DNA of 63,852 nt from Aplysia californica (GCF_000002075.1 NW_004797315.1:346733-410584); one strand, 5' to 3'. Positions 20,001 through 63,852 are shown, numbered from the stretch's first letter. A program made the numbers and translations. Notes: generated by a model from the letters alone, not told the origin.

Positions 20001-23000
20001 GAAACATAAATTCTGCTGGTAACACACATTTATTTGACTTCAGTTGGCCGGGAATCGAACTCTAAACCAATTGGTTTTGAATAAACATCTTTATCATTTT
20101 GTGGCGTTTCAAACAACAGACACCTACTGCAACCAAAATGAGCAGCGAGAAAACTCGCAACCCTCAAACTCTGTCCTGATGAAACCTCGCAACCCACCCG
20201 CCGGCTGACTACGTGGTTTCATCACGACAAAAATGTTGTAATGAAACCTCGCATCCCACAGCGTAGCCACATAAACAATAGAAAAGTTATTTTTATGTAC
20301 TAACCACGTTTCTAATGTGTTTTTGTCTATCTGTACCAACTTTGGTTCATATAGGTCATTTTGTTCAAGAGTAAATCAGTTTTTTGTCTCTCCTGTAAAA
20401 TTTTCCTTTCTGGGGTTACGAGGTTTCATCACTCCACCAGCGATATATATATATATATATATATACGTATACTCTCCCTTTGCTTGACTATTTTCCTATT
20501 TGACATTCTCCCTCTCTGTCTCAGATTTTACTATCATGTACGTATACTCTCCCTTTGCTAGATTATTTTCCTGTTTGATTTTGACTTTCTTTCTGTGGGT
20601 GGTTGGCGGGTGCTCTTGTGTGGTTTGCTCCTTCTGTTCCTATCAAACATTTATCGTCTTTATCTCCCCTCCTTCTTTTTTGTGTTTGTTCCTCCCTTGT
20701 AACATCTCTAATCTTCGGCATTTATATGACCTAATTGTGTTGCAAGTGCCGTAAAACTCTTACGAAAAAAAACCCTCTCTCTCTCCCTACTATGTCTCAG
20801 ATCCAGCACCTGAAACAGTTCAATGGAAATCTCCAGAGTCTGGGCCAGGCGGAGCAGTTTGTCCTCCACCTGTCAGACCTGCCAGACTACCAGACGCTCC
20901 TCACCGGTCAGCTGAGGCGGGCCGAGTTCAGCGTGAAGATCCCGCAGCTCAAGGTCGTGCTGGCGAGTACGCTGGAGGCGGCGGGGATCATCTTGTCGCA
21001 CGACGGTTTACGGGAGGTCCTGGCGCTCATCCTGCGACTGGGGAACTTCCTCAACCATGTAAGAAGACTTAATAATAATAATTGGTTGCTTTTAAGGACA
21101 AACGGGCTATCTCAGATTTTGGGGGTTTCCTGAAATCTTGATCTACACCAAAGTGGGCATTGCCCTACCTATAAGAGAAGTTTGGTTTCATTGGTGTGTA
21201 GATATTTGTTTGGTTATAGAGAAAACTCTCATTGTATTTTAAAGAAACTGAACAAGGGGCAAAAACTTTACCTTCAATTTTCTCAAAACAGCATTTTTCG
21301 AGATAGCCCCGTTGTGGCTAAAAGCGACCAATTGTAATATAGCTGGGTTCCTATTCCCACGTGGGTGAAGTGAGGAAAATTCGTGTAAAGTGCTTTTCCC
21401 AAGGACACAACGTCGGGCCCTTAATGGGATATTCCGAGAGCTTAAGCACTAAGCCACCGACTTTCAGTGTGGGTGTTTGTTGGTACTCGGGTGTTGTTTG
21501 CTCCTTCTTTCCTGTCAAACATTCATTGTCCTTACCTCTCCTCCTCCTTTTCTTCGTACGTTTCTCTTAAGTGATACCTCTTATAAATAAGTTATTTTTA
21601 GAACCTGTTTCTTTTCATGTCCAGACTGATCTTGTGCTATAGATTTGTGTTTGTTTGTGTGGTGAACATGTAGAAATGCTTTTGTAGTATTTGTTATAAA
21701 ACAAATTCCGTGGGTAGTTGGCGGGTGCTCTGGTGTGGTTTGCTCCTTCTTTTTTATCAAACATCTATCATCCTTATTTCTCCTTCTTCTTTTTTGTTTG
21801 TTACTCTCTTGTAACATCTCTTATCTTCTGGTGCTCATATGACCTTATGTAGTTGCGAGTGCCGTAAAACCTCTACTAAAACAAACATTTCATGTCCTGA
21901 CTGATCTTGTGCTATGGATTTGTGTTTGTTTGTGTGGTGAACATGTACAAGTGCTTTTGTAGATGAACAAATTCCGTGGGTGGTTGGCGGTGCTCTGGTG
22001 TGGTTTGCTCCTTCTTTCCTATCAATCATCTAACGTCCTTATCTCCCCTTCTTCTTTTTAATGTTTGTTACTCTCTTGTAACACTAATCGTTGGCACTTA
22101 TATGACCTTATTGTGTTGCAAGTGCTGTAAAGCTTACTAAACCTAAAGCCAACTATAACGTCTGAGAAAAGCTTCTTAAGGTTTCCAAAATTGTATGTGT
22201 CCGGTACCCTCAGGGTCAGTTCAACGGTTACGCCAAAGGCTTCAAACTATCCAGCCTGGTGCGTCTAGCAGACGTGAAGTGCCAGGAAGCTGGACACAAC
22301 TTTGTCCATTACTTGACCGGTCTGGTGGACAGCACAGATGACCGCATCCTCTCCTTTGTCAACGAGATCTCCAAGCTGGATAAAGCCATTAGGTAGAGTT
22401 TACCAAAACATGAGACTGGTTTGTTGTAGCATTTTGTATTTATTTATACACTGCAAGTTTTTGTTTGTTAATGGATGCTTTAACCCTATCCGTACGTCGT
22501 GTTTTACTATCGTATCCGTACGACGTGGGGAACTCTGTGCTGCCACTTTTCAAAGAGGAAATTTACTCGTTAATCCGATCCGTATGCTTTGCATAGCAGT
22601 CTGTCAAAATGACTTTGAGAAATACTGAAAAATTCAAAGAGATCTTCGTACTAGAAGTATTCTAAAATGTGAAGAATACAACTGCAGGGATGCAAAATGA
22701 CCCCAGGGCATAGAGATAGGGTTAAAGTAAAATACAGTCAAGGAGAAAAGTGGCTGTGTTAGACAGTAGTATCATTATAATGTGGAAAAAACGCAATGGA
22801 CGAATGACATTTTTCTGATTGTAAGGTTCATAAAGCTATTTGCTGCACATAAAAGAGTGTATCTTATTTTATTTTGCTTTGAATAGTTTATGCAAATGAT
22901 TGTTTGAATAATTAGAATTCCTGAGTACTGTATATGGAATAACTGGAGTTTTTCAAAAGGAATTAAAATTACTGAATCAATTGCTCAAACGCTTTATATG

Positions 23001-26000
23001 GGAGTGAAAATGTTATTTCTGCCCCTCTTTCCAGCTGCAGCCCTTGCGACATAAAGAGTGACTTTGACAAGATCAACGGTCAGATCAACACCTTTGTCTC
23101 CCAGCTGTCCTCTGCCAACACGGTCGTTCAGAAAAGTTTTCACGGCTTCTTGGAGGTAAATCTCAGATGTCTGGATTATCAAACATTGTGAAATGTGTCT
23201 GTAGTTTGTGACCAGATTCAGAGTTTTGTTCTCACCCCCCGGGGCGGTGCTACTGACTGAAGTGTCTTTAGTCATTCCCAAAATGGGGACATTAACCATG
23301 TTCTTATGCACAGTAGAATTGTAATTGTAAATGGGCTGATTCATCAATGTCATGCTCATAACTGTGCCTGAACTGCAACAGGGAACTGCTGCTTTTTCTT
23401 TCCTACTCCTTTCTATCGTCATTTTTTCTCTTCTTTTTTTGTATGTTTGCCACACTCTTGTGACCCACTATTTCCTGGGTGCCTTGATAGTCGAAGCAGA
23501 CTTTGTGCTGTTGAAGCTAGAGAGGTGAGCAGAGTAAGTTGGATTCCCCTTGGCGCTCATATGACCTTATTCAGTTGCAAGCTTCGTAAAACCTTTCTCA
23601 AACTAAACTTAACTCATCCTCTTCCCATTTTTATACCAGCTTTCACTGGATTTCTCTGTGCATGCCGATCGTGAATGATAGGTGTGTATGTTTGGGAGAG
23701 ATTTTCCTGAGTAAAATGAAATAATAAGTAGGTAGTGTCATACCATACTTATTTTGAAAGGTAATAAAACGTATAATTGAAATGTGTAAAAAAATATTTG
23801 ATTAGGCAAAGGACGTAATTGATACTTGTCAGAGAACACACGTCCATTACATGGGAGCTAATAAAAAGACAGACTAAATTTCCGACTTTGAATATAAACT
23901 ATAATAAAATTTGTATTTCAAAAACAGATTCCTACATTCATAAAATGAATGTTACGTTCAATTCCCTGCTTATTCATGCAAAAATGTATGGAATTGTGCA
24001 ATTCTAGTAGATTTTATTATCAATTTTGTAACATCTCTGTGACAATACCAAAGTTTGTAATGTGCCTGGGTTGCGCTTACTTGTCCAATTCTAGATTTAG
24101 ATTTAGACTTAGATCTAGGTCATTATCCTCTTGATTTTCACTTCTCTTGGCTTTCTTTCCCTTTCATTTCAAGAATTTCACTCACTTCCCCATCTTCCAA
24201 CTATCCTCTTTACTATCACTGTAGATTTAGATCTACGAATTATGTCTTTCACGCTTCTTACTTTCGATTCAATCATCACCTGAATCAGAATCTAAAGCTA
24301 AGGGTTCTAAGACAATATCATCTCTGTCCTCAAGTTTACTAAAGAAAAATTCCATAGTCTGTTTTACAAGTTATCCTATAGGGTCGTTTACTACCAGGCC
24401 CAGAAAACATAGCTAGAACTAAAAATGGGTGTGATCATCCTTCGTGTTTTGGTTTCACAAACACACTACTCAAAATACTCCAACAATTTCAATTTTCCAC
24501 CCACTTACGTAGTTATAGACACTATATTTCGTTGCAGGAAGCTTCTACTTTTGAGATTTGTTTATATCTAAACTTAAAACTATGGATCAGGCATTTACGA
24601 ACTAAATAAAGTTTGAGTATAGCCTGTGCTGATGTATCGGTAATGGGCGGAAATGATGCGGTCGCGCTACCGATATATCGGTAATGGGCAGGGAATGAGT
24701 TAACGTTTTGGTCTATAATAATACGGCTCATCGTGCTTTTATTGAGTATCCTGGTCTTTCTCTTTCTGTTGGGATACTGTATCCCTCTCAGTCTGGGTTC
24801 GCCCTGGCAGGCAGAGTCCAAGCCTGCCTCCCAAAACGATCAAAAATTGTGCTGATGGGGATCAAAAATTGTGCTGATGGGGGTGTAAAATCACTTACCT
24901 TTGAAAAAATATACAAAGAAAATAAAACGTTGGTTTCTTGGTACTACATGTATGGGAGGTGATAATTAATCGTAAGATACAGTTGAACTTCTTCTAATGG
25001 TTACCTTTCTGAGAAAAACGAGAGCTCTCTTCCCTCATCATCATCATTTTTTAGGGGGGCTCCAGTGGCTAAGTAAGTAGTGAGTTTAGACTCAAGTAAT
25101 GTCAAGCAAGTATCAGTGACACGGGGATCAGATGGGTGCCGGGTGGTCAGTGGGGTGTGTCCTTGAGCAAGACTCGACAACCCCAGCTCAAAATACAGGG
25201 CGCTGCACCGACAATGGCATGGTTGTAAACTGTTCGGTATTTGTGTAATATTGTGTACTTATGTATGTATTTGTGCTTGTATTTATGTATGTATGTGTTT
25301 ATTATAATTATGTATGTTTGTATGTGTATGTATGTTTGCCATTGTAAACCAAAGTGCCCTTCTGGGACAAATAAAAGTAATTTATTATTATTATTATCAT
25401 TCCCTTTCTCACGCTGCATCAGGGTATAGGCCACGGACAAACACTTTCCACCTTTCTCTATCCTGGGCTAGCCTCTTGATGTTATTCTATGTCTTCCAAC
25501 TTTTCTGTACCCCAATTTCTGTGATTCTTTTCCAGGTTCCACACGGCTTTCCCCTTAATCTCTTATCCTGTGGATTCCAATCCAACAATTTCTTTGTTAA
25601 TGCAGCTGCCTTTTTTCCTGAGAGTATGTCCAATCCATCGCCACCGCCTTCTTCCTTCCTCATCTCTGACTGGGTTCTGTCTTGTTTCGATAACACTTCC
25701 TCGTTGGTGACCCTATCTGTCCATCTGATCCTCAGTAACTTTCTTATACACTTGTTCAAGGAAATCCTCTGCCCTCGCCTCCCGGTTATTGTATATTATA
25801 ATAACATTGTCCTAGAAGTCCACCTAAGACAACCAGTTTTCTCATGGACAATTGTTGGTCGTGGTGCACAATTTTGATTGTACTGTTTTACCATTGTGAT
25901 TCAAGTTTCTAAAATTGATCATGATATTTTTCTTTTTCTATCTTCTATCTCTATCTCTACCTGTGGTATGCTTGGCTCGTTACAGGATGTGAAAAGAGAT

Positions 26001-29000
26001 CTCCGTGAACTGCAGGCTCAGATAGCAGAATTGAAGCAGCAGTCGCAGCGCCTGGCCGAGTTTTTCTGCGAGTCGGAGACGTTTGAGCTGCAGACTTGTC
26101 TCAAGACGCTGCACAACTTTTTCAAAGAGCTCAGGACGTGTAGGCAGGTGAGAAACTCAGGCATTTATGTGACCTAATTGTGCTGCAAGTGCCATAAACT
26201 CTTACTAAAGACAACTCTAAATCATATAACAAATTTCTGTGATTTGAATTCTTCGTTACTCCTAATATGATTTGGAAAGCACTATTCCCAGTGACCCTGG
26301 GGATAGGCCCAGAAACTATTCCCAGTGTGGCTGGGAATAAGTCCGGAACCCACTGGCTATAGGGCTTAGGGCAGAATAGTTCCCAGTGTCACTGGGAATA
26401 GACCCAGAAACTGTTCCCAGTGACACTGAAACAGACAGGCCCATTAGATCTACTCCTGGATCGATAACAACATAATAACAACATTCGATCTACTGTTCCT
26501 TCACTGATCTACATGGGCATGATGGTGATGGGTTACTAAATATACTAGACTATATTTTATGTTGATCTATATTCTAGATACTAGATCTAACTAGACTAAA
26601 GTAGATTGTGGTGTGAGTGGAAGAATTTTTTTTAAAGAAAAAGGAATGGTCATTCTATGCTTGCTTGTTATTCTGTCGTAAATTAAATGTACGTGTTGAT
26701 CTAGATTTAGATCAACATGCGGTTTTTGGAGACCACGGTACAGGACAGGTAGAAATCCTTCCCGATTCTTCTTTCTTCTAGATTCTAGTTCTAATTCAGA
26801 TCTAGATCTATTCTACAGTCAAGTCTAAGCCCTAGGTAAGAGAAGAGAACAAAAGTACTGAACTGAAGTGAGAAGAGAGTCTACAGAGCAAAGACTTCTG
26901 ATTTTTTTTAATGCAAAAGAGTTCTGTTGTCATTGGGAATAGTTTCTGCACCTATCCCCACTGTCACTGGGAATAGTCACTTATATTATTTTAATCTTGT
27001 TTCACAGAGGGGTTCTGACCTACTAGTAATTAAATGAAAATTGAGCTTCTGGAGTTTTTTATCAAAACTATCAGCTGTTTCGTGGCTTCATTTGCATCCT
27101 GCGAGTGGTTGGGCTGCCACAGTTAGTTCTTACATCCTTTCTTTCTATCTGTCACTTCTGTCTCTCTGTTTTGCTCTCTCCCTGCACTAAATGATGGTTA
27201 TTATATCAATGAGCTTATCTTTGCTCAAGAAAATAGACAAACATTTCCATCCTATAAATGTGGGCAGTTGGCAAGTGCTCTGATGTGGTTTGCTCCTTCT
27301 TTCTTGTCACACATCATCAATCATCCGTTTCTTTCCTCCTTTTCATTGTACATACATAACAAAATCTGAGACTGAGGAAGAGTGTACCGGAAAATAGTCC
27401 AGCATTTGGGGCCTCTCTAGTAACATCTTTAATCATCGGCACTTATATATAATCTAATTGTGTTGCAAATGCCACAAAACTTCTTTTATCCCTTCCAGTC
27501 CCATGCGCGTATATTTTCTGCTGCGCTTGTACTTCCCACCGTCCCAAGAGCGTATATTCTCAGTTTCAGGGTGCACTAAATTTGGGCATTTTTCGAAATG
27601 GCAGCGAACCTTATTAAACTTTTATTTTCATAATTGTTCATTTACCTTTAAACTTTGTTATATGTTATTATCTAAACCTTATTACAAAGATACTACATCA
27701 CTTTTTAGAATGCATGCCTCTTTTTCTGAAATACTGCTGTATTGGCTGGAAACTGACTCTAAGGGGGTGCTCAAAAATAGCTGGGGCTGGAAGGGTTTAA
27801 AACCCCAAAGACCCATCCTGTAAATGAGACAAGTTTTTTTATGATCCCTCCAGGAGGTGCATTTGATGTCGAAGCAGAAGACGGAGGCGGTGAGGCACAG
27901 CGATATGTTCAGCCGACAACTGCGCAGGAAAAGCATGGCGCTTCAGTTTGGACAAGAGGCCGGTAGGTTTTTACAACATCGTGTGGAGAACTGGCGTCTG
28001 GTAAAATTGGTGTGACGGTTAGTTAGGCTCCTACGACACTACCTGCAAAAGACATCATGAACTTGATACCTGAGTGGAGAAGTTTCCTTCAGAGAATCTC
28101 GGACTATCGGCTGAGACATTGAATCACATACAGTCGAACCTGCCCTGACGGCCACCTCTATAAGACGGCCACCTGTACAAACGGACACTTTCCATTTCCC
28201 CCCTTGCGTTTTTTCTATATACTTTAACTGTGTAAAACGGGCACCTGTCCAACGCGGCCGCGGCCACTATATTTCAACACACAACCCCTATCACACAAAG
28301 CAAAAACACCTGTCTTAGACGGCCATCTTAGTGACTCCATTACGCTTTGTCATAAATTGTGCATTAGGCCCTGGCGTTGTGGGTGAGCCATCATCTAAAA
28401 ACCTGTCGTTGCTAGGTAGTCCCTCCAACTGATCATGTTGTGTAGGCCCCTCCCACTGTTGACCAATAGGTAACAAAATTAATTTACAGCTGCTGGTGAG
28501 GTAAGCATGTGATCCATCATAACCCATAAGCCCCGCCCAGAACCCATACACAAATCGCAAGTGAGATGAGTGGTCACTATTTTATTTACCCAGTCTGTAA
28601 CAAAGTAACAATGGACGTCAACATGAACTTGTGATAGAAGCGTCGCTTGTTCTCCGAGTGGTAGTACGGGTGTTTGTTTAACCATAGCACTTGATCCCCC
28701 TTGTCTGACACATTTCGTTTTATTGTCACCCGTGCACAAAAGCAGCAACAAAAGAAAAGAAAACCCAGCGAAAACAACAACAACAATCAACAATGCAACT
28801 ACCTTCGGTTGGGACCTCAGAAAGGAAGAGTTTGTTTTCTCAGAAAGGAAGGGTTTGTTTTCTTCATCTTGATCAGTCCTGCCTAAGACGGCCACCTGTC
28901 ATATACGGCCACTTTTCTCATTGACAATGGGTGGCCGTCTTACACAGGTTTGACTGTATATCGTCCTTATAACTCTTCCTCCTTTCCTGTCAAACACCTA

Positions 29001-49124: not shown

Positions 49125-49440
49125 GCCGCCATGATAATTTATAAAAAGTTTTATCGGACATAAGTATACGACTCTCTACGTTCAACACAACGATATTTTG
49201 ATTGTGAAGAATAAAATATTGAGTTCATACTCTTGATATGATTTATTTACCTACATTAAGGTGAAATCTATTCCCATTTTTTCTTATTGACTAGTTATTC
49301 TCTGCCTTAACGATGAAAGTATCAAGTTTAGAGTCATTAGTTATCCTGTCTCAATTTTTAAACAGCATTGAATGAATGCGGAACAGTGTATCACAGTACA
49401 TACAGTGTAGTTGTAGTGTGAGTCTGCTGCAATCATGGCG
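49125..49440. promoter_or_regulatory. Candidate bidirectional promoter shared by the methyltransferase (-) and HARS (+)
   Basis: Divergent YY1-like CATGGCG motifs at 49125-49133 (-) and 49434-49440 (+), about 300 bp apart; candidate - strand donor GTTAGG near 48907. Confidence 0.5.
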
Positions 49441-49527
49441 GATAACGATAAGAAATTACAGGAAAAGATAAAGAGTCAGGGTGAACTCGTGAGAAAATTG
49501 AAAGCTGATGGTGCTGATAAAGCGAAG
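49435..49527 (+). CDS. HARS: First coding exon (WHEP domain helix 1) of an aminoacyl-tRNA synthetase, most likely cytosolic HisRS
   Basis: MADNDKKLQEKIKSQGELVRKLKADGADKAK|GTAG; QG.LVR.LK is the WHEP signature; length and phase-0 intron position fit HisRS exon 1; WARS or GARS are less likely alternatives. Confidence 0.8.
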
Positions 49528-49779
49528 GTAGAGTATAGTTCACCTTTCATTAGTCTGGAATGTTTAATCGACTGTATCTCTCTTTGTTTACGTGTAATGT
49601 AGCAGACCAGTAGTTTGATTCAGTCTGGCAGCTGTCACTCTCTCTCTGGCCTCTGCTGTCACATTTTTGTCGTCATTCTCTAAACAAATTTTTGACTTGG
49701 GAAGTTGAAGGAATCTCACTTTAGTACCTGTCTTTAGAGCTGTCCTTATTTTTCCATGAATGTAGTAGTCCCCTGGCAC

Positions 49780-52080
49780 ATGACCTTCTCACCGCGGGTG
49801 AGAATAGCCTTTATAGCGCAGGTGAGCCTTTTTTTGGCTATTCTCACTCGGTGTGCGTCACCGTGTTAGGCCAACCAGTGCAACGTTCACCGTGAACATA
49901 TGTACCAGTGCTCTTGTGTTGAAAGCGTGCAGTTTTGTCTCTGGGCAGTGAGAGAGAAAGAGAGGGGAAGGGGAGAAAGAGAGAGAGAAGAGGAGTGGCG
50001 AGAACTTCCGGGCAAAGCAAAATGGCGACCCATGTAGTTCGGCTCGTTTCGAAAAGTGAAACAATCGTAGCATCTTTGTAGACGACCAAATTAATATTAT
50101 TTTGTGCTATAACATCATTTTTTTCTTTGTTTTTGCTAATTTGATCTCATCCACACTGACAATTTATTCAGAAATTTATGAAAAACAGGTCTTGTTTCCA
50201 GGGTTCCCGCGGCCTCCTTGAATTCAAGGAGTCCTTGAAAACTGCTTGAATTTGCATTCAAGGAAAAATATCCTTAAAAACTCCTTGAATTTGCTCTCAA
50301 GGAAAAATCTCCTTGAAAACTCCTTGAATTTTGCCAGATCGGACAGGAACACGTGTACAGGGTGACTGCCAAGCACCGGGAATCCCGGGGGCCCCTGGAA
50401 TTACCCGGTCATATGAAAAAAATCGATGAGACCCGGAATGCAGCGGGAATTTGAAGAAATCTGTAAATCGCCCCGGGAAAATACATAAACGTTCTCGAAT
50501 ATTTGAAAACGAAATCCGATATCGTCCTTGAGTTCATTTTTGCCGGTCGCGACTGTGATATAATTCATCCGGCCTATCCCGGCCCGAGAGTACATTACAG
50601 GTGGTTATGGCGGCAACAAGTGGAAGTGTATGTGCGACGTGCGATACCGAAGTTCAATCGGGAAAAATCAAGATCTACTTTCGCTTTCGTTACCACCTAG
50701 AAATTTGCCGGTAGGACTTATAGTAGTCTGATAGCGCAACATTTGTAACATGCAGGTTCTGCATTACAAACGCTGTGTCGCCATGAAAATAAATCGTTTG
50801 TCCTGTGCTGTCACTTGTGGAAAGAAAAAAAAGGTTATACAAGCTTCTTGTCGGGCTCGCCATCGTGACCGGTCATTGAACCTGTGCATTTTTTTTTGGG
50901 TCACATCGTGAGTATCGCGATGGTTGAGGTCCCCAAAGTTCCTGCAAAGTCTGAGCGCTGCGAGTATAGGACTCAGGAATGGGGGGATTATTGATTTTTT
51001 TTAAAAGTCGCACGCTGGGGAAAGGGGGGATGACAAAAACTAAACTTGGAAGCAGATTTTACTTTTCAGAATTTTGATTACTACGATCTAGATCTAGAGC
51101 TCTCTGCAATGCGCGCGTTGGTGCAGGCCTTGTATGGAATCGGGATCTGTCGTACTCAAACCTTGTAAGCCATGTGTTTGTAACTATAGGGTTACCATTT
51201 CATTGGGTAGAGGTGATAGTAAATTATTATATGTATTGTATTCCATATTTGAGCTTTCTGTTCAAGATTTTCAGTGTCACTGCATCTTGCCCTTCCACAG
51301 TTTTTACACCTCTCACACTGAATAGGTCTACTTGAGACGTTCATGTTATTACTCTACTTTAAATAGTTAGAGTAATAAGTTTTATCTTTCACGTTTATTG
51401 TATAAACCTTGACACCCAAACTGGTTCTTGACAATGGATATTCTGGTTCTAGGCCTTTTCTCAGGCTCAAAGCAAGATTCATTTTTATATATAGTTTAAT
51501 ATAGGGGGAATATGATGAGGGGAAAATATAAATATAAACTAAGTAAGAACTGACTGAAATACCTAAGTCACAGTATTCCAGTGCCACACTGCTGACATGT
51601 TGCTGACTGGAATGTACCTACATGCGTGCGTGCACACCATTCTGTGTGTATATATATTAATATATAAATATATAAATGAAGCATGCACTGTCATTGTTAT
51701 GTAACATGCCCCTGGAGAATGGATGAGGCGCCCCCCCCCCACCCCACCGGAAAATTGAGAAGCCGGGTTGGCAGTCACCCTGCGAACAGTTTTTGTAGGG
51801 AAATCGAAACTATGATATGATTCTTTTCGGACAAGTGTAGACCTTCGAAAATAGGCTTTTGTTATGAATTTCTTGACCAAATCTCCTTGAATTTTGAAAT
51901 TTTCTCCTTGAAACCTCCTTGAAATCTCCTTGAAATCTCCTTGAATTTGGTGGGAAGTTCATGGCAGGAACCCTGTGTTTCACACCGGGTGAGAAAAGCC
52001 AGTGCCGACAAGGTCACAAGTCTCACCCGGGGTGAGAAGTCGCTTTATTTTTATTCTCACCCAGGGTGAGAAAAGCGACT
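49780..52080. repeat. Older element with TCTCACC...GGTGAGA palindromes, split by the hAT-like insertion
   Basis: Palindromes at about 49786, 52021 and 52054, with half sites at 49841 and 51987. Confidence 0.45.
50199..51975. mobile_element. Non-autonomous hAT-like DNA transposon with 6-bp TSD
   Basis: CAGGGTTCC...GGAACCCTG termini, TGTTTC on both sides, multiple subterminal TCCTTGAA repeats. Confidence 0.82.
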
Positions 52081-55000
52081 TCCTTTTTTATTAATAAAGT
52101 GACTATTTCTCCGAACAGTCGGGAAAATTATAAACTTTCAACACCTCTATAGTGTCTATTTCTCCACACGATTTCAGTTCTCTTGAGATTTTTTTGTCAT
52201 TTGCAAGATTTAAGCGTCATCTTTCATTCTGCCATTCTGCGAGGATTGAGATGAAGTAGCATTTTTTACATCGAATTCAATTTGTAGAGACAGACTAGAG
52301 ATTTACCGAGTCTGTGTACTTCAATTGTGGTTGGGGCAGCGTTCGCGGACTCTATACACTTCATTTGAAAATACCTTCAAAAGGTACTGCAAGAAAACAA
52401 GACTGCTCGACATTGGCAGTAGCCTGTTTTGTATTTTGTCATCCTAAAGCAAAAACTAAAACCGTTCAGCCTTCATGTAGACAAACAAAATAATAATCCC
52501 TCCCCCCCAACTCACCCCCACGCCTCGTTCACCCCTTATCCACACAAACGCACACTCACACCCCCACCCCCACCCCCACACACATACCCACACACACACA
52601 CCCACACACACACACATATGTGCGTGCGGGCCACTCAATTCGCAAATTAACAACTAATCTCGAGAACGGAAACCATTAGAAGAAATGGAGTTAAGTTTAT
52701 TTTCCCGAGCGTTTGGAGAAATAGTGCCGGCCTTTTAAAAATTACTAAAGTTGTAGCGGTTGTGACTTGATACTCTGGCAACACTGTCAGTTTGACTTGA
52801 AATTCGTTTAGGATATCTAGATTAGGTCTACTTTCAAAGCCCTGTGGTTTTTGTTCATTTTTATCCGTTTTACTGGAATATTGACTTTCTATTCGTTGCA
52901 AATAATTAACTATCTAGTCTATCTATTCCCAATTTATGGTGTGGTAATTTCCATGCTCCAGACCAGGAATCAGGGGGGGGGGGGCATGCCTTCCTCAGAT
53001 AGGGGGGGGGGGGGTTACATTCTTTCCGCAACAATTTGATGAACATTTTTTTTTTTTTTTTGCAATTTAAGTTGAAATTTTCTTGAATATAATTGATTTT
53101 TATAAAGTTTTAGTACTTAAGTAAGTGGTCGTGTGATCTGCAGCAGAAATTACTGCAGTTAGACCCCCAAAGCTGTGCGTCTGTGTGTGGGGACTGAGTG
53201 AAAGTAATTTTTTACCATTTTTTCTCTCTTCTAATGTTTTATTGGCGATAGTTATTTCACTTTTAACATTTTTGTGGGTCTTCCCTTAATTGAAAAAATT
53301 AATGTAGGTATAGATCTGTTGGCAAATACTGAGCAAGCATAGAATAATTTTTGTTGGTATTATAGACTCAAACATTTTTATTCGCTCTAATCTTTGGCTC
53401 AGGTGTATTCTTATATTATTAATTATTTAGAGTGAAATTATATGTCTCAAATGCTCACTTTTCTTCTTGTTCTTTATTTTTGTGTGTTATGATTCTGATT
53501 GTTTAGACTGTCCTATATCCTTCATGAATTATTCAAAGTGGCTATGCATACCTCCCATACGCCCTCGCGGCTATGCATACTACGGCCCTCCGGTATGCAT
53601 AGCATCGAGGCTATGTGAGCGGCCCTCCACTTCACATAATAATAATAAGCAAGGCTTTGTAGGCGGCACATACTATCAAACCGAGCACTTCCGACTCTAC
53701 CGAATAACTTTAAAATGAATTAAAGTAGGAAAAAAATATTATTTTACCTCCCCTTACCCCCACCCGCCTTATATTCCCCAAACTCCCAAATCAAACAAGC
53801 TGCAGCCACTAAAAATGACAGTCCCAAGCCTGTTTAATCGCAAGGGAAATTGTATTGTTTAGTATTGAAGGTTGTAGTAGACTAGTAGACCGTCAGATGG
53901 AACAGTTGAGAGACTGGTCCAGTGGTAGGACACAAGTAGAACAGAAACATCATGGTAGACTGTCATGTGGATAGGCACCAAATAATGTTGTATTTATTGA
54001 ATATTTCAGAAAACGGATTTGTATGAATGGCTAATCTAAGTAATAATAGACTTTAACTACTTTAAGAAATCCCTTTTGATAAATTCTTTTTCGATGCCAT
54101 CTCCATCCACCTTCCCTCCTACACACTATTTAACTGTGAAGTGTTCTTGTTCAAAATCAAGGGGAAAATGTTTTTACGTATACTGTTAGTTTTGTTAAAA
54201 ATAAGAACATCCTCTGCTGAGAAAAAAAACAGACTTTTACTTCAAGGTAAATAAAAAATTAGACCATGGTACAATTCTAAATTATCTCTGAGGTCTTCCC
54301 CTAGAAATCTTTCTATTGTAGTACCTAACTAATCTAAAAGCAAGTCTGAGCTGTGCATCAGGGCTCAAATAAAAACTGAGTGTAGGATAATGTTTTTGTT
54401 TTGTTTATTTTGTGCAGTGTCTAGCCCTTGGGTGAATTTGTTTACTCATCAAACACACAATTGTTGAAGTTGACAAGAAATTGTTGGGCTCAGAGGTAAA
54501 ACTGATGCGATGGGTTCAAGACGGAGCTGAAGCATCAACCGACTGACATTTGGTGTGAAGTCTTGTCAGCCAAATAAAGGCTTTGTCTCCTTTTTAAAAA
54601 AACAAATGAAAGACCCGCTCTTCAGTTGGACGAACACAGGTCTGTGGTGTGAATAAGCTGTTGAACGACATTGAAAGCAAATAATTCTGAAAGCCCGTAG
54701 AACAACCTGTGAAGTGCTCATTGTAAAGCTATGCTGTTTTAGTATGGTGGGGATTTGTTTTCTGCACTGAGAAAGTCTCTGAGGAATATCGGAGAAGAGT
54801 GGGCTCTGGTTTTCCTACCTCTGGCAGATACCGTGTGTGCTTTGGTTTGAAGTCTGTACCCCTCTCTTCTATTTCTCGATCACATCACACATGAAGACCG
54901 GTATCTTTTTAATACTGGGCCGTCCTGCTTGGTTCAAATCTACTGTTTTCAACTGTTGTAGATTTCTAGATGAGTTAAGGACATCGTCAACTTTCAGCAG

Positions 55001-55975
55001 ATGTTAACACATGGCATGTTTATCATTACATTTGGTGTGCTGTGAGTTCAGTTAATTTGCTTCCAGGCTAGAGTTGGGTCCAAATTTCCATCAAGTCACT
55101 CTTCAACTTGGATTCATTAAGAAGTGTTCATGTATCTTCAGCACTTGGATGTGTCCTATTTGACGTTTTACTTCGGGGGGGGGGGGGGGGGGGGTCTCAC
55201 TTGTTGTGTAACTTCATTGTGTGGAAAAGCGGCACCAAACCTTGTGGCCACTAGTGGTATTGAAATATCATGGGGATGAATAACAAGTACTGATAAAGGT
55301 GGTGAAGTAGTAGACACATGGCTCGCTTAATGTGGTAGAGGTCTCATTCGCACAAATTGTCACTTCTCTGAGCTGAAGTAATGGGTATAATTTGTACTTC
55401 AGGGTAGACTGCGGAAACTGCAAAAACAAGCACAGCCAATGTAGAATGGGGCTCTTCACTGAGGGTTGCTACATCTTATAATAAAATGTCACACAGCCAG
55501 CTCAGTGTTTCTTGCTACAAGTATTGGGCAAAGGGGAGAGGAAGAATAGGAAGTAAAGAAATACTGACTTGTGCTGGAGGTTTTATTTTCTTTGAGATCA
55601 TTCCTTGTTGGGAGGTAGGAATTCCTTGTTGGGAGGTAGGAAATGATATGGTGGAAGGGTGGGGAGGGGGAGGGGCTGAAGGGAGGCTGAAAATATAGGC
55701 ATGAAAACAAGTGTCCAACTCAAAAGTCCCCGTGCTGCATCTGGCACGGGGAACAATTATTATTATATATCTGGCCTGAGAGGGAATTTTAGGAGGTCCA
55801 AAAAATCTCCATAATAATGATAAAACTCAAACATAACAAACTTGTGGATTAGGAAAGAATTCCAACTTTCAGCTCTGACAAATTGACGTGAGGAGCAAAT
55901 TTTGGCTTGACTTTATTTGTTATTATAATGTTAACTTTTAGTCTGTTTTCATTTTTATTGTTTAAAAACAGTTAT

Positions 55976-56320
55976 TGGGTGTTTGGCGGGTGCTCTGGTG
56001 TGGTTTGCTCCTTCTTTCCTGTCTAACATCTATCGTCCTTTTCTCCCCTTCTTTTTTGTGTATGTTACTCTCTTGTAAAAAGTCTGAGGTATCCACAGTC
56101 TCTTTGTGAGATACGTATAAGATGATGTGGGTGGTTGGCGGGTGCCCTGGTGTGGTTTGCTCCTTTTTTCCTATCAAACATCTATTGTCTAAAAGTTATC
56201 TTTCCCCCTTTTAAAAAAAAAAGTTTTTTACTCTCTTGTAACACCTCTAATCTTCGGCACTTATATGACCTTATTGTGTTGCAAGTGCTATAAAACCCTT
56301 ACTAAAACTAAACTAAAAAA
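55976..56320 (+). mobile_element. Two S1 copies (partial 55976-56078; full 56126-56320)
   Basis: Match the consensus. Confidence 0.8.
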
Positions 56321-57545
56321 CAGTTTAGTAGTTTTCCACCGCTCAATGAGTGTTTTGTGCACCCAGTTTGGTCGGTCACCTGAAGGGTTATATTATATTT
56401 GAGTTTGCTTTCTGTGTGAAATTGAGTTTGACACCCCGTGGTGGAGACAGAAAATGTTTTATCAGTGGTGTGCCTGATTGATGTCAGCGTAATTGATAAG
56501 GGAGTGTGTCAGGTGTGTAGTTAGTGGGTCATGGTGCGCATGTTTCGGGGCATGGTGGAGTTTGATGGTCTGAGGTCAGTTATCTCAGCTCGTAAATTCC
56601 CGCAGCAGCCGTTTCGTTTCTTCTTTTTTTTTTTATGATCATAGTTTATGATGGCCGTATATCTCCTCTGTCATTCTGCTGATGTTGTAGGGTATGATAA
56701 TCATTTTGCCTTTGTGAGCAATTTGTTCTTTTCAATTTGAAAATGACAGCTGTCTTTTTTTGCCTGTGTAAAAAAGAGAGTATTTATAAAAGCAGGAATT
56801 TTGTGCTCTGAGACGCGGCGTAACTTCGGAGTGATTAAAGCTGGTGGCAAACTGAAGCATGCTATTACCAGAGTTGGATGGGTTTTGCTAGTCAGAGATA
56901 ACTAAAGAATGGTCTCGGTGATTTCAAACAATCGTTGGTCCTTGAGATAATTGACAATTTAGAAGTGATGTCGATCGCTTATGCACGGCTATTTGTTTTG
57001 TTCCAATTAAAGGAGGGTTTATTGGAGAAAGCACTTCTTGTACTCTGTCTAGTAGTAAATGAAACAGTTTCACCTTTTTTCTTCCCCACTGATGCTACTG
57101 TAGTTGCCACCAGAGCCATGCATTGTTTTCATATGTGTTAAATACGAACATTTCATTGCTGAACTGTGTTCAAGATATGTCACCTGTTGTTCCGTGACCT
57201 CAAAAAGCAGAGAAGGATTTAATGTCAAACAGACTCCCTGTGTGCCCTGTGGTTATTATTGCTGTTATTTGGCTGCTCTACAACACAGGACTTTTTTTTA
57301 AAAATATCAGTGATAAAGGGAATTCTTGCCCATTATCTCTCAGACAACTATTTTTGGCACTCCTGATATCAGCTGTTGACTGTTTTGAATTTAAATGATA
57401 AAGTATTCCACCGTCAAGACAGCTGCTACTGTTTTTAATGAGCTAGTTTCTGTTACCTGAATTGTGAATCTGCAGGGAAGTTATTGTGATTGTGGAGAGA
57501 AGTTTTCATTAGCTGAATTGTGATTGTGCAGGAAAATGTAAGAGA

Positions 57546-57776
57546 ATGGCTACTTCTAACTGTGCTGGACGAGAACACGTGCAGGAAAAGTTGTTGGCGT
57601 GGAAGAGTAAAGAGCCTCCCTGGGATTACGAATACCACGAGCGAGATATCGTCATATCAGATTTGTGCCCCATGTTTAAGAGAACCAGGATCAGTCGCTT
57701 AATGAATGAAATCCACGAACGGATAGTTGCGATCAAACAGAAGTATCCGCGAGACCCAAAGTTGCGCAAAGCCAAG
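57546..57776 (+). CDS. Candidate alternative first (or cassette) exon of HARS, 77 aa, unknown function
   Basis: AGAATGG start context, coding-like composition, ends LRKAK with strong phase-0 donor AAG|GTAACT. Confidence 0.55.
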
Positions 57777-59095
57777 GTAACTGTTGCTTAGCCTGCCCAC
57801 TCTGCTAAGTCCTGATGGCTCAATTTTACTTGCCTAAAACTTCATAGAAGCCATATATATTATGATTTATATCTTATTTTGTTCTTTCAAGAGCTTGATT
57901 AGAGAAAAGTTTGCTTGCACTTTAATTCATCTTAACTAAATAATAGTAGAACTCCTCTGAGATGTGTATTAAGGAAACCAGCATGCACATCAGTTGGGCA
58001 GTTGTGTCATACTATCTGAGGTTTGTAGAATTACTGAACAAATTGTTTGAGCATCTCAAGAATTTCATTGAGATTCGCCTGTTACAGTTGTGTGTGCTTT
58101 ACATCAACAGTTCGCCGTTCCAATGTCTATTTGAATCCTATTTCTCACGCCGGCTAGTTTGGAAGGAATTCTGTACCGAGCGACAATATGAAACAGTAGA
58201 ATAGAGAGTTATGGTTTAAGGTAAGAGTAAGGTTAGGGGTCGGGTCAGTGTTAGATTTAGGTGGTTTCTTTATAAATTGTGTTTGTTAGGGTGGTCGCCC
58301 GTTACAGAAGTCTTTCCACTAGTTTGATTCATCTTTCAACAAATGTGACCAGCTGCCACAGTGGTTTTCTTTTTTCGTTTGTGTTCTTTTTATAAATGGG
58401 TGCTTGTATTTGAGAGGATGTTGTGCATTGAATGGGCTCGTATGCATAAAACATGTCGTTATGTACTCTGTCAATTTTTTTTTCTAGAGAAGTGGTTTTT
58501 ATTGTCATTATTGTTGTTGGTGGTGGTGTTGTTATAATGTTATTGTTATTAAAGCTGAGACAAAACATGTCAATACAGAGATGATAATTAGGATTAGTTT
58601 GGCTGAAAGGTATTACTTTGAATGCAGTACATGTATGATATAGAGAAAATAGGGAAGGAGTTCCGCAGAGGGACGGTACTTACCGTGACACGGTCCACCG
58701 AGCAAACTTTACAAGAGTTAGGGTTAGGGTATACCCTGCTCAAAATATCCCCTCTTTTGTGTTTTGTTGGTCGGCCGGCCCTCTGTACAACTCCTTCCGA
58801 AAATAGTAACTGGGGCTTGAATCAACTGAGTAGCTTATAAAAATGTGTGTGGTGTAGTCTAAAACACAGACTGGGGATCTGCACTGTATTCTCTTTCCCC
58901 TTTTTGCTTTATCCGTTTCTCACCAGATTTGCTGACAAAGGAATATTTTTCTGCTTTGCTTTGCATATCTTGACGGTGTTGTTGGTGTGATCTGTGACTT
59001 CTTCTCACGGGACCTGTGTTATTTCTTCTTGTGGCCCTGACCCTCGTTCCTTCACTCGGCTGTTGTGGACGCTGGTCACTTACACTTTACGCAAA

Positions 59096-59206
59096 ATGTG
59101 GACGACTGTGATGGCTGTGCGGCGAATATGTCATTTCCACCTGCGAACTCTGCGACGTTCTGGACTTACGCTGCCCTATTCCTCATGCCGATACCTCTGC
59201 TCTCAG
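59096..59206 (+). CDS. HARS: Alternative first exon encoding a mitochondrial presequence (mitochondrial HisRS isoform)
   Basis: AAAATG; MWTTVMAVRRICHFHLRTLRRSGLTLPYSSCRYLCSQ is Arg/Ser/Thr-rich with no acidic residues; consensus phase-0 donor CAG|GTAAGA. Confidence 0.7.
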
Positions 59207-59545
59207 GTAAGAGATTGGTGTGGATGAGTGCGATGATGGGGTGTAGTTTGGGTGTGAGAGATTGGTGTACGGTTCATAGCTGTTTATCTTTTGGCGCTGT
59301 CGCAATGTGTTTATTGTTCTTAGCTCTTTTTCTAAAAAAGAAGAATAAATGTTTTTACATCCCTATCAACACAATTTAGATCGTTTTGAAGGCAGACTTC
59401 TGACCCAGCATGTCAGGGCCAACCAATTCTGAGAGGGGTACAACAACCTAGAAAAAGGACTGAGATACTCTGTAACATTTCTGCTTTACAAGTCCGAGGT
59501 ATCCAGTCTCTTTTTGAGATACGTATAATATATATAAAAGAAGAT

Positions 59546-59720
59546 GTAGGTGGTTAACGGGTGCTCTGGTGTGGTTTGCTCCTTCTTTCCTATCAAACAT
59601 CTATGGTCCTGATCTCTCTTTCTTTTTTTAATGTTTCTTCCTCTCTTGTAGCACCTCTAATCTTCTGCCCTTATATGACCGTATTGTGTTGCAAGTGCCG
59701 TAAAACTCACTAAAATATAA
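59546..59720 (+). mobile_element. S1 retroposon copy
   Basis: Matches the consensus. Confidence 0.8.
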
Positions 59721-59925
59721 AAACGTGGATAATAAGATGGTTAATCATAGCAGTTTGTGATAGAGTTTTAATGAAAGCAAGTTCTGGGCACTGTGGCTGA
59801 AGTCAGTGACTCTCTGATGTGTCCATATAGTGTGCCAGACAGGTAAATCACTGACTTTCTGATGTGTCTGTCGAGTGAGACAGTGTGTCTGTCAGAAGTC
59901 AGTGACTGCCTAGTGTGAGTCGATA

Positions 59926-59928
<3 letters not shown>

Positions 59929-59989
<61 letters not shown>
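59929..59989. repeat. (TG)n microsatellite
   Basis: About 30 units. Confidence 0.97.
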
Positions 59990-59990
<1 letters not shown>

Positions 59991-60393
59991 TGTTCACAAA
60001 GTGTCTTTCTATTAGTTAGGTAGAGGAGATTATAACACAGTGCATGGAGGTTCAAAAGTTCTTTGCTGACAGGGAATTTTTTAAAATTTTCACCTCTGCG
60101 AATTCCTTGGATTATCATTGTCTTACTTTTGAACTGTCTGTTGCATTTTATTTACATACTTTTCTCATGGCTTGAGAACGTGCTCTCTGTATGATAAGCT
60201 CTTTCATAAAATTCCTTGACCAAGATTGTCACAAGCAAAACAAAATTGCAAGAAGAGTAAAATCCTCTTTGTGAAAGTGTCGTGGTAAATTAGAACATCT
60301 TCTCCCTCCCCTTCCTTTTGTACACCATCATAATAATATTGTTTCTACATGTGGTATATAGCTTCACAACGGTGCATGCCACGCTATCCATTT

Positions 60394-60644
60394 GGTCGCT
60401 TTTAAGCACAAGGAAAACCCCCCACTGTTTTGAGAAAATTGAAGGTATCGTTTTTGGACTCTAGATCTAGTTACGTTTCTTTAAAAGACAAGGAGAGGTT
60501 TCTCTATAACCAAACAAATACACACACCAATGATATCAGACTTCTCCTATTGGTAGGGCAATGCCCACTTTTAGATTTAGTGTAGGTCAAGATTTCTGGA
60601 AACCCTCGAAATCTGGGTTAGTCCGCTAGTCCTTAAAAGCGACC
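60394..60644. mobile_element. MITE family D copy (opposite orientation)
   Basis: GGTCGCTTTTAAG ... CTTAAAAGCGACC. Confidence 0.8.
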
Positions 60645-60965
60645 TTATCTGACCAACAGTGATTTCTGTTCTTTCAAGATCGTCGTAAGACGTTCTTTAC
60701 AAAAAGGTGGGGAATAGAAATAGAATGAGAATAAAATGTTGCTTGTGGTCGTATGTCGTATGTGAGTATGCAGGGCTCCCCTTTTCAGGCAATCTTAAGA
60801 GATTCCTTCACCCTTTGGTTTCCTGTCTTAAGGGGTATTTAAACCCTTGTTTTAGGAACCTAAAGGGTTGTTGGTTGTCGGTGTTTTTCTGTTCATGTCT
60901 GACGAACTATTCCTCCAAAGTCAATTGTCTCCTAATTGTATTGTAAAAATGTTGGCGTGTAACAT

Positions 60966-61005
<40 letters not shown>

Positions 61006-61360
61006 NNNNNNNNNNNNNNNNNNNNNNNNNNNNNNNNNNNNNNNNNNNNNNNNNNNNNNNNNNNNNNNNNNNNNNNNNNNNNNNNNNNNNNNNNNNNNNN
61101 NNNNNNNNNNNNNNNNNNNNNNNNNNNNNNNNNNNNNNNNNNNNNNNNNNNNNNNNNNNNNNNNNNNNNNNNNNNNNNNNNNNNNNNNNNNNNNNNNNNN
61201 NNNNNNNNNNNNNNNNNNNNNNNNNNNNNNNNNNNNNNNNNNNNNNNNNNNNNNNNNNNNNNNNNNNNNNNNNNNNNNNNNNNNNNNNNNNNNNNNNNNN
61301 NNNNNNNNNNNNNNNNNNNNNNNNNNNNNNNNNNNNNNNNNNNNNNNNNNNNNNNNNNNN
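61006..61360. other. Assembly gap between (TC)n and (CA)n tracts
   Basis: Run of N. Confidence 1.
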
Positions 61361-61645
61361 CACACACACACACACACACACACGCACGCACACACACGCA
61401 CGCACACACACCCAAACCAGAAAAAAATCCTGATTCATTCTTCATAGCCATCCCAGGGTTCACATTCCAGTTTTTCCAAACTGTCGATTTTTTTCCCTCG
61501 TGAGAATCTCACAAGCCTCTTGGATCACTTCCTTCTCATCAAATGAAAATGCCTCATGCTTGCTTTTATGCCAAGTGATCAGTTTGTTGTTAACAGCTTT
61601 TGTGGTCAATGAACTGCGAGTACTGTATTTCTGACATAGACAAAC

Positions 61646-62161
61646 GGGGCTCTCGTGGTCTAGAAGATAAGGTCTTCGCCTCTCACTCAAAGGTCCCGAT
61701 TTCGAATCCGGGTAGCGACGGAAACATTTTCTTCACTAAAGTTGTCTCCTTTCGCCCCTTTTCCTGCTCTCTATGTTCTGTCGTCTGCTTTCGTCTCCAC
61801 TTTCTGCCCCCACCCCTCACCTCCTTTGCCCCTTCCTCTGGGCTCCTGACTCTTTCTGCAGCCTTTCTACTGTTTCTCCTTGGCTCCTTCTTACTGCTGT
61901 CTTTCAACCACACCCCTGGTCTTCTGGTTAGAAAGATCTACACCTAGCCTTTTCGGACAAGGGCGAAAAAATCTCGGGGGTCCCGTGTGCAAGTTGTGCT
62001 AGTTAAATATCCATTTGTGGTCTAAAATCGACAAGAGTAGGCTTCGGCTGCCACCCGGACAAAATTCTAAATGTCCTACCCACTGAAAATGTTTAATGTG
62101 CCCCATGCACTTATATAACCTTATGCAGTTGCGAGCGCCATAAAACACCTACCAAAACAAG
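61646..62161 (+). mobile_element. S3 tRNA-derived Meta/MESC-type SINE, second copy
   Basis: Colinear with 30681-31212; 9-bp TSD GACAAACGG. Confidence 0.87.
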
Positions 62162-63001
62162 GACAAACGGCGATTGCCCGTTGTCAAATCATTGACTCGG
62201 CTTCGGGATAGAGAATGGGGAAAATGGTGCTTGCCGGACGCACACCACCTACATTTTAAAGCGCATGCCTATGCAGTTGCGAGCGCCGTAAAACCTCACT
62301 GAAACAAAAGACGTACGCCAAGTAATGCCAACCCCCGAAACGAAATTTTAAAGAGTAACGCTCACGCACCGCCAAAACTTTAAATAGTTTAAGGGTGTAA
62401 TCTGCTGTACGCACACCTGTTCGGAATGGGGAGCCCTGGTGTGTGAAAAGCATTGTCATGGTATCCTTGTTGTGGTTAGTAAAAAAAAACAACTACTATG
62501 AAGCTGTTGTTCGTACATCTTTTAAAAGTGTTTTTTTCTTTCTTCATTTTTTGTTTTTTTTTTGGTGCTCATGACTGTGGTGGGGATGGTGGCGTAGTAC
62601 TTTGAAAATCGTGGTGGACAGGGGTTCGTTTCCTGTTCACTGTCATCTTAATTCAGAGTTGCATTTTTGCGAGCACATTTTTAGACAAAGTCAGTTCATT
62701 TTGGATATATCCCCGATAAAGTTGTAATTGTATAAGTAACGTTATTTTTATTTTAAATAAATGTTGGCCAAAATCAAGCGGTGCTGTGAACGTTTGTGAA
62801 TGCAACCAACTTGTGTTTTGTGCGCTCATATGACCTTATACAGTTGCGGGCGCCGTAAAACTCTTACTAAACTAAACAGATTGCACTTACAGTCGAACCT
62901 GCTCTAGCGACCACCTGTCCCAAACAATCACCTGTTCAAACGACCACCTATTTCCCCCCCCCCCCTCTTTGTGTTTTTAAAAGAGATGTTATGATAATGA
63001 G

Positions 63002-63172
63002 TGGGTGGTTGGCGGGTGCTTTGGTGTGGTTTGCTCCTTCTTTCCTATCAAACAAATATCGTCCTCATCTCTCCTCCTTTTTTGTTACTCACTTGTAACA
63101 CTTTGGCATCTATTCTTCGGCACTTACGTGACCTTATTGTGTTGCAAGTGCCATAAAACGCTTACTTAAACT
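63002..63172 (+). mobile_element. S1 retroposon copy
   Basis: Matches the consensus. Confidence 0.8.
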
Positions 63173-63349
63173 ATAATAAAGACACTTTCAAGGAGGACCA
63201 CCAGCCAAAGATGACCGCGCAGTTGCAAGCGCCGCAAAACCCTTACTGAACTTTTAAAAAAATATTTTTTTGAAGATGGCCGCTTTTCTCCGGACAGTAG
63301 GTAGTCGTCTCGAACATGTTCGCCAGTAATGTGTTTATTTTTTTATATT

Positions 63350-63735
63350 ATTATAGTAGAGGGTTTTACGGCGCTCGCAACTGCATATGGTCATATGAGC
63401 GCCAAGGGGTGGGTGTCAACAGAGAAGTCTTTACAGGGAATCAGACTTACTCTGCTCACCTCTCTAGCTTCTACAGCACAAGGTCTGCTTCAACTATCAA
63501 GGCACCCCGGAAATAGCAGGTCACAAGAGTGTGACAAACATACAACAGAAGTAGAGGAAAATGACAATAGTAAGGATTAGGAAAGAAAAAGCAGCAGTTC
63601 CTTGTTGTAGATTAGGCACAGTTATGAGCGTGACATGAATCAGCCCATTTACAAGTCTACTGTGCTTGAACGAGAAATGTCCCCCCTTTGGGAATGGCCT
63701 AAAGGCACTACAGTCAGTGGCACTGCCCCGGGGGA
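63350..63735 (-). mobile_element. S2 retroposon copy
   Basis: Colinear with 17436-17829. Confidence 0.85.
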
Positions 63736-63852
63736 TAAATAATAATACAGATAAACAATGCAGAAAGTGCACGGTGGTGATGGCATTTGTGTCATGACTC
63801 AGTGGAATCAGGTGCTCGTCTGTTTTGGGGCATATGAATGAAGTTATTAGTA

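Follow-up and report, generated by a model that had tools for sequence, protein, structure and literature searches.

Three exons on the plus strand of a 63,852-nt stretch of Aplysia californica DNA (the window, G000:C45:346733-410584, numbered here 1-63852) belong to the single histidyl-tRNA synthetase (HisRS) gene of this mollusc. They carry 31, 77 and 37 codons open from an ATG to a phase-0 GT donor, and the coordinates reported for them in an initial annotation of the window were exact. We consider it probable that the three share one HisRS exon 2, that a stop codon at the head of a cassette exon hands translation over to a mitochondrial ATG within the same exon, and that the 77-codon exon, 1b, provides a cytosolic form from a second promoter. 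Assembled contigs contain the joints of 1b to exon 2, of the cassette to exon 2, of 1b to the cassette and of exon 1a to the cassette. The exon labels 1a, 1b and 1d, as well as the type names YR and DGG used below for N-termini, were coined in this analysis. The features are listed in Table 1.

Table 1. Features of the Aplysia HisRS locus, in window coordinates unless a G000:C45 position is given
Feature	Position	Strand	Description
Exon 1a	49414..49527	+	Short leader, ATG 49435, WHEP helix 1 (31 codons), phase-0 donor; leads to the 516-aa cytosolic HisRS
Exon 1b, likely alternative first exon	57423..57776	+	77-codon frame from ATG 57546 (strong start context) to a phase-0 donor
Internal cassette exon, 280 nt	58927..59206	+	Polypyrimidine-CAG acceptor, TGA 58933-58935 in the 1a/1b frame, phase-0 donor
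Predicted mitochondrial presequence, 37 codons	59096..59206	+	N-terminus of the 522-aa isoform (XP_012934679.1, P0007)
Intron leaving the window	59207..63852	+	Followed outside the window by exon 1d, exon 2 and 12 more HisRS exons
Exon 1d, candidate first exon, 28 codons	G000:C45:411912-411995 (L002:1328-1411)	+	ATG, DGGVHKSI motif, Lys-rich tail, phase-0 GT
Exon 2, shared	G000:C45:415960-416046		Phase-0 acceptor
HisRS stop codon	G000:C45:432869		12 exons after exon 2

A single HisRS gene with an internal cassette exon

The shared exon 2 lies 5.4 kb beyond the end of the window. It encodes helix 2 of the WHEP domain and the LKTPK end, and it was first seen as a weak helix-2 match in a genome WHEP search. 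An exon 2 carrying LKTPK had been predicted by the initial annotation, which offered two sites for it; the one beyond the window proved right, and a location inside the N stretch at 61006-61360 was rejected. The HisRS identity proposed for the downstream exons was borne out, all 485 residues of the HisRS body of P0007 being placed on 13 exons with the PF13393 and PF03129 domains; a WARS, GARS or unrelated downstream gene was rejected on this ground. One downstream catalytic exon of 60 aa is identical to A. californica HisRS XP_012934679.1, and a genome search with it gave one match and hence one HisRS locus, for a single exon query in an assembly that is perhaps incomplete. The named models comprise a 522-aa protein with the presequence N-terminus (XP_012934679.1, P0007) and a 516-aa protein with the WHEP exon (XP_012934681.1, P0121); the members listed include two of the three in the Aplysia HisRS isoform cluster. 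The WHEP exon is 1a, whose assignment to helix 1 agrees with a match to positions 1-23 of Pfam WHEP-TRS (E 4.8e-8); exon 1a alone passes PF00458 (33.3 bits, cut-off 32.5), and helix 2 is supplied by exon 2.

Exon 1b is contained in 20 of the 24 sequencing runs listed, none of which is recorded as RNA. Seven of them (X4, X5, X8, X9, X10, X11 and X20), all assembled contigs and all chosen for containing 1b, were examined and treated as transcript data because introns are empty in places and the joints follow GT-AG. Donor 59206 continues into exon 2 in X8, X10, X4 and X20 (4/4 runs), and donor 57776 does so in X8, X10 and X4, that is, in three of the four runs with junction letters and three of seven overall (studies P1, P4 and P2). 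X10 also holds the joint 57776>58927, with GT and AG at its borders, so that the cassette is both skipped and included behind 1b within one run. In X20 a loose contig end before acceptor 58927 is the 3' end of exon 1a. Contigs over exon 1a start at 49414-49417 in X5, X8 and X11, and those of X5 and X8 diverge from the genome two letters beyond the donor, which is what joining to exon 2 would produce. The proposal that all three donors reach one acceptor thus stands in contig letters for 57776 and 59206, and for 49527 in contig ends and the named model. Two side observations concern exon 1a. The overhang of 28 instead of 27 letters in X10 and X4 hints that the 1a>exon 2 joint is absent from those assemblies, a lead only, given that contigs cannot show absence and that both runs were not compared over exon 1a. 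At 49417, an X11 contig carries 23 letters that depart from the genome directly after the AG at 49415-49416, and these may be adapter or an upstream non-coding exon.

The initial annotation had taken all three exons for interchangeable first exons. The shared gene and acceptor were found as it proposed; the presequence exon, however, is not a first exon but an internal cassette, with its acceptor at 58926|58927, behind either upstream exon. The corresponding model, in which three mutually exclusive first exons each have their own promoter, can appeal to the phase-0 donors of all three reaching one acceptor, and the contigs leave room for a minor start within the cassette. It is nevertheless very improbable: in X8, X10, X11 and X20 the contigs and the genome come together precisely at the AG at 58925-58926, and X10 and X20 show the upstream exons spliced to the cassette, which contradicts separate promoters as the main route.

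In the frame of the upstream exons, the cassette opens with two codons and a TGA, and its first ATG is 59096. Cassette inclusion therefore leaves an upstream open reading frame (uORF) of 33 codons behind 1a or 79 codons behind 1b, ending 160 nt before this ATG; the 1a form has a second uORF of 27 codons and the 1b form several more ATGs. The 37 codons that follow ATG 59096 hold six Arg and no Asp or Glu, with a hydrophobic moment of 0.62. Five of five variants within them fall at third codon positions, four being synonymous, and similar presequence ends occur in other molluscs and in amphioxus. A Pfam scan matched no family to either the presequence exon or the 77-codon exon. From this presequence-like composition, the 522-aa cassette product is likely to be mitochondrial.

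Taken together, these data suggest a gene in which exon 1a would serve a housekeeping promoter and exon 1b a second promoter, active in certain tissues or stages. From either start, skipping of the cassette would give a cytosolic enzyme, of 516 aa with 1a or of 562 aa with 1b, the latter with WHEP helix 1 replaced. Inclusion would end the upstream frame at the cassette stop, and ATG 59096 would start the mitochondrial enzyme of 522 aa, ribosomes presumably reaching it by reinitiation or leaky scanning. The mRNA that joins 1b to the cassette could be a target of nonsense-mediated decay. All isoforms share the catalytic body, so any differences among them would lie in WHEP-dependent contacts and not in chemistry.

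Coding potential of exon 1b

The claim that the gene has one more N-terminal exon than the cytosolic and mitochondrial forms require gains support from the 77-codon exon, which is joined to exon 2 in X8, X10 and X4. Its 5' ends fall at 57423-57492 in six of the seven runs; in X10 it extends past 57380. The X10 contig over 1b measures 1063 nt and extends beyond the compared stretch, so a longer leader or an upstream exon is possible there. A start-stop uORF at 57536-57541 sits 10 nt 5' of the 1b ATG. Exon 1b likely codes for protein, because it has a strong start context, coding-like codon usage, a long frame and a variant-free coding part. Its codon usage scores above that of 95 of 96 intronic open frames, under a model trained on just 485 codons, and of 20,000 Markov simulations 0.13% produced an ATG frame of at least 77 codons that stayed open as far as the donor. 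In X8, no variants were found in the 231 coding nt of 1b versus 12 in 627 nt of neighbouring contigs (Fisher p 0.04). Use of 1b appears to be restricted to some samples.

According to AlphaFold2, the best-scored part of 1b alone is a helix at residues 49-66. This helix might pack on the exon-2 helix, forming a variant WHEP hairpin. There is also a faint internal repeat in the 77 aa (57546-57776), the score of which is reached by 18 of 2000 shuffles.

Several points weigh against the reading of the locus favoured here. All runs consist of assembled contigs, presumed to be RNA, with tissue unstated, and expression is poorly reflected in contig depth. The 1a>exon 2 junction is drawn from the named model and contig ends, the mitochondrial localisation is a prediction from composition, and exon 1d is a candidate read from the DNA sequence. 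Exon 1b runs unspliced into the intron, at depth 3-4, in four of the seven runs (X5, X9, X11 and X20); depth over 1b in the spliced runs is 86, 70 and 10. The coding case for 1b consists of sequence statistics and contigs. Searches for homologs of the 77 aa gave nothing among longer proteins (four candidates) or among 1.84 billion 50% representatives, although such cluster-representative searches could hide isoforms under another HisRS, which makes these blanks weak. Against the genome the 77 aa matched only themselves, an Atlas search gave no usable match, and among the gastropod N-termini compared, none is similar to 1b. Confidence in the predicted 1b structure as a whole is low (mean pLDDT 52.6). 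No WHEP-TRS match was reported for 1b by Pfam; on the canonical WHEP profile it does not score above chance (256 of 2000 shuffles reach it) and brings exon 2 no gain, and its amphipathicity is unremarkable (562 of 2000 shuffles).

Much of this would suit a different interpretation, in which 1b is a real alternative leader that added a young extension of 77 codons without function, its frame having only to remain open for the new promoter to yield a working HisRS. We regard this as unlikely. The absence of homologs and the poor fold confidence speak for it; moreover, none of the isoforms annotated in six other gastropods contains 1b, and CpG is low upstream of it (observed/expected (o/e) 0.11-0.44 vs 0.8-1.3 upstream of 1a and 1d). 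Some in-frame ATG open to the donor is found in 28% of the simulations, a proportion that falls to the 0.13% given above once at least 77 codons are asked for. The coding-like codon use and the lack of variants in the coding part also argue against a functionless extension, and in the protein searches, made on cluster representatives, an isoform could be hidden under another HisRS.

Further N-termini at the split WHEP domain

Isoform clusters were listed for 30 of the HisRS matches and 116 N-termini sorted by type. Of these, 64 were of the WHEP type, 11 of the YR type and 8 of the DGG type; the other 33 looked presequence-like on inspection by eye. A third N-terminus per se is not unique to the Aplysia locus, being annotated in other invertebrates too. 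The YR type comprises P0017, P0143-P0145, P0148, P0105, P0106, P0162, P0165, P0168 and P0178, from amphioxus, echinoids and the source of P0178, a sequence closest to Capitella and gastropod HisRS. In these isoforms WHEP helix 1 is replaced by another helix at the same junction. All three YR isoforms tested match Pfam WHEP across both helices, below the cut-off, and the predicted fold of P0143 has two helices (15-37 and 43-59). On this model, the YR N-terminus may rebuild a variant WHEP hairpin with exon 2. In two butterfly HisRS isoforms, P0153 and P0191, an insert of about 90 aa lies between the WHEP helices at the same junction, with a weak Arc1p_N-like match in one of the two (E 7.6e-5).

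As to the origin of 1b, it has somewhat less than an even chance of being a diverged copy of an old duplicated helix-1 exon, of the pattern YRxxVxxGxxIKxLK, that was retained by amphioxus, sea urchins and one or more lophotrochozoan-like animals as a third N-terminus of HisRS. Such a descent is compatible with the mechanism proposed above. BLASTP aligned 1b with amphioxus P0143 at 12 of 33 positions identical, ungapped and beside the exon-2 junction (pairwise E 0.004), and with P0177 at E 0.043. Four of nine YR N-termini beat all but at most 25 of 500 shuffles, compared with 0/21 for WHEP, 0/18 for presequence and 1/6 for DGG N-termini, and with a YR-type hairpin profile 19 of 2000 shuffles reach the score of 1b. 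The WHEP matches of the YR isoforms over both helices, and the two helices predicted for P0143, point in the same direction. However, the test was post hoc, a single genus accounts for three of the four sequences in favour, and the four from sea urchins give no signal. A helix-only profile gave 1.9 bits (84 of 2000 shuffles), below ordinary WHEP exons, and an earlier profile gave E 3.3. The likeness is weak, with a post hoc p no better than about 0.01, and 1b is longer than the YR isoforms and lacks their conserved Gly, which is His in 1b. A search of 30-69 kb for a YR-type exon elsewhere gave none (best E 1.7).

The model of the initial annotation also appears incomplete: a short distance past the window there is a further candidate first exon, of a type conserved in gastropods. 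Scanning 30 kb with a DGGxHKSI profile built from six other gastropods gave a single match (E 5e-7), whose frame leads into a phase-0 GT. This exon, 1d, is located between the cassette and exon 2, its upstream DNA is CpG-rich (o/e 1.34), and it is likely a fourth first exon, as a candidate read from the DNA. The DGGxHKSI type is annotated in Biomphalaria, Physella, Bradybaena, Babylonia, Littorina and Pomacea, and all six gastropod species listed with three annotated N-terminus types include it; one extra N-terminus type has been kept across distant gastropod lineages. Like these isoforms, exon 1d has the DGG motif, a tail rich in Lys and a junction in phase 0. They are automatic annotations with no function given, and are unrelated to the 77-aa exon. 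Exon 1d was not among the Aplysia cluster members listed (2/3), and an Atlas search with the DGG N-terminus gave no usable match. Lying 3' of the cassette, it would give solely a non-mitochondrial form of 513 aa that lacks helix 1.

A more speculative proposal, which we lean against, is that the phase-0 intron splitting WHEP is an old socket for modules. Invertebrates (amphioxus, sea urchins and lophotrochozoans, with the 77-aa exon in Aplysia) would have used it for a promoter-switched helix-1 isoform, whose promoter would replace the housekeeping one for both HisRS forms in some tissue or stage; gastropods would have added a second conserved form that lacks WHEP and has a basic tail, which may direct it to the nucleus.

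Relation to known systems and neighbouring features

The dual-targeting design is known, and the extra N-termini are partly present in automatic annotations. As described in the available text of Waldron et al. 2017 (PMC5608375), zebrafish hars is a single gene with two transcripts and a 309-nt exon 2 cassette, and its products have been localised. The arrangement is the same as in Aplysia: exon 1 carries the WHEP ATG, the cassette has an early stop and a second, mitochondrial ATG, and skipping leads to the cytosolic enzyme. Differences from that account are the cassette length (309 nt vs 280 nt in Aplysia), the localisation, shown in zebrafish and predicted in Aplysia, and the number of starts, given that two transcripts are reported in zebrafish whereas in Aplysia 1b also feeds the cassette and a candidate fourth first exon lies downstream of it. 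Human KARS1 (LysRS) has a cassette design like that of Aplysia, in which including exon 2 introduces a stop for the reading frame of exon 1 and, further downstream, a start codon that opens a presequence; it is a different synthetase and, in the available text of the review (PMC7600831), has no split WHEP domain. Single-gene HisRS is described for worm and fly in the accessible parts of PMC10196762 and PMC4826098. Full-text searches, with subscription journals outside their coverage, found no literature on extra HisRS N-termini.

The presence of the zebrafish design in a mollusc suggests either that it is old in bilaterians or that it originated twice. The extra first exons would be natural variants of an essential enzyme differing solely in the WHEP appendix, so that the role of the appendix could be tested by comparing isoforms. 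For human HARS, roles of this appendix in contacts with proteins, in binding of tRNA and as a site of autoantibody epitopes have been described (PMC9956352, available text).

Other features of the window concern its neighbouring genes. On the minus strand, an unbroken frame of 376 codons at 45563-46690 matches the SAM-dependent methyltransferase domain PF08241 (E 6e-13); it is divergent from exon 1a and about 2.7 kb apart from it. Exons of a formin-like gene are located on the plus strand at 10378-34219, with FH2 matches at 20735-21130 and 25878-26174; other long frames there may belong to the same gene. Finally, a very high-copy interspersed repeat occupies 55976-56312 and attracts thousands of contigs, similar copies being found throughout the locus.

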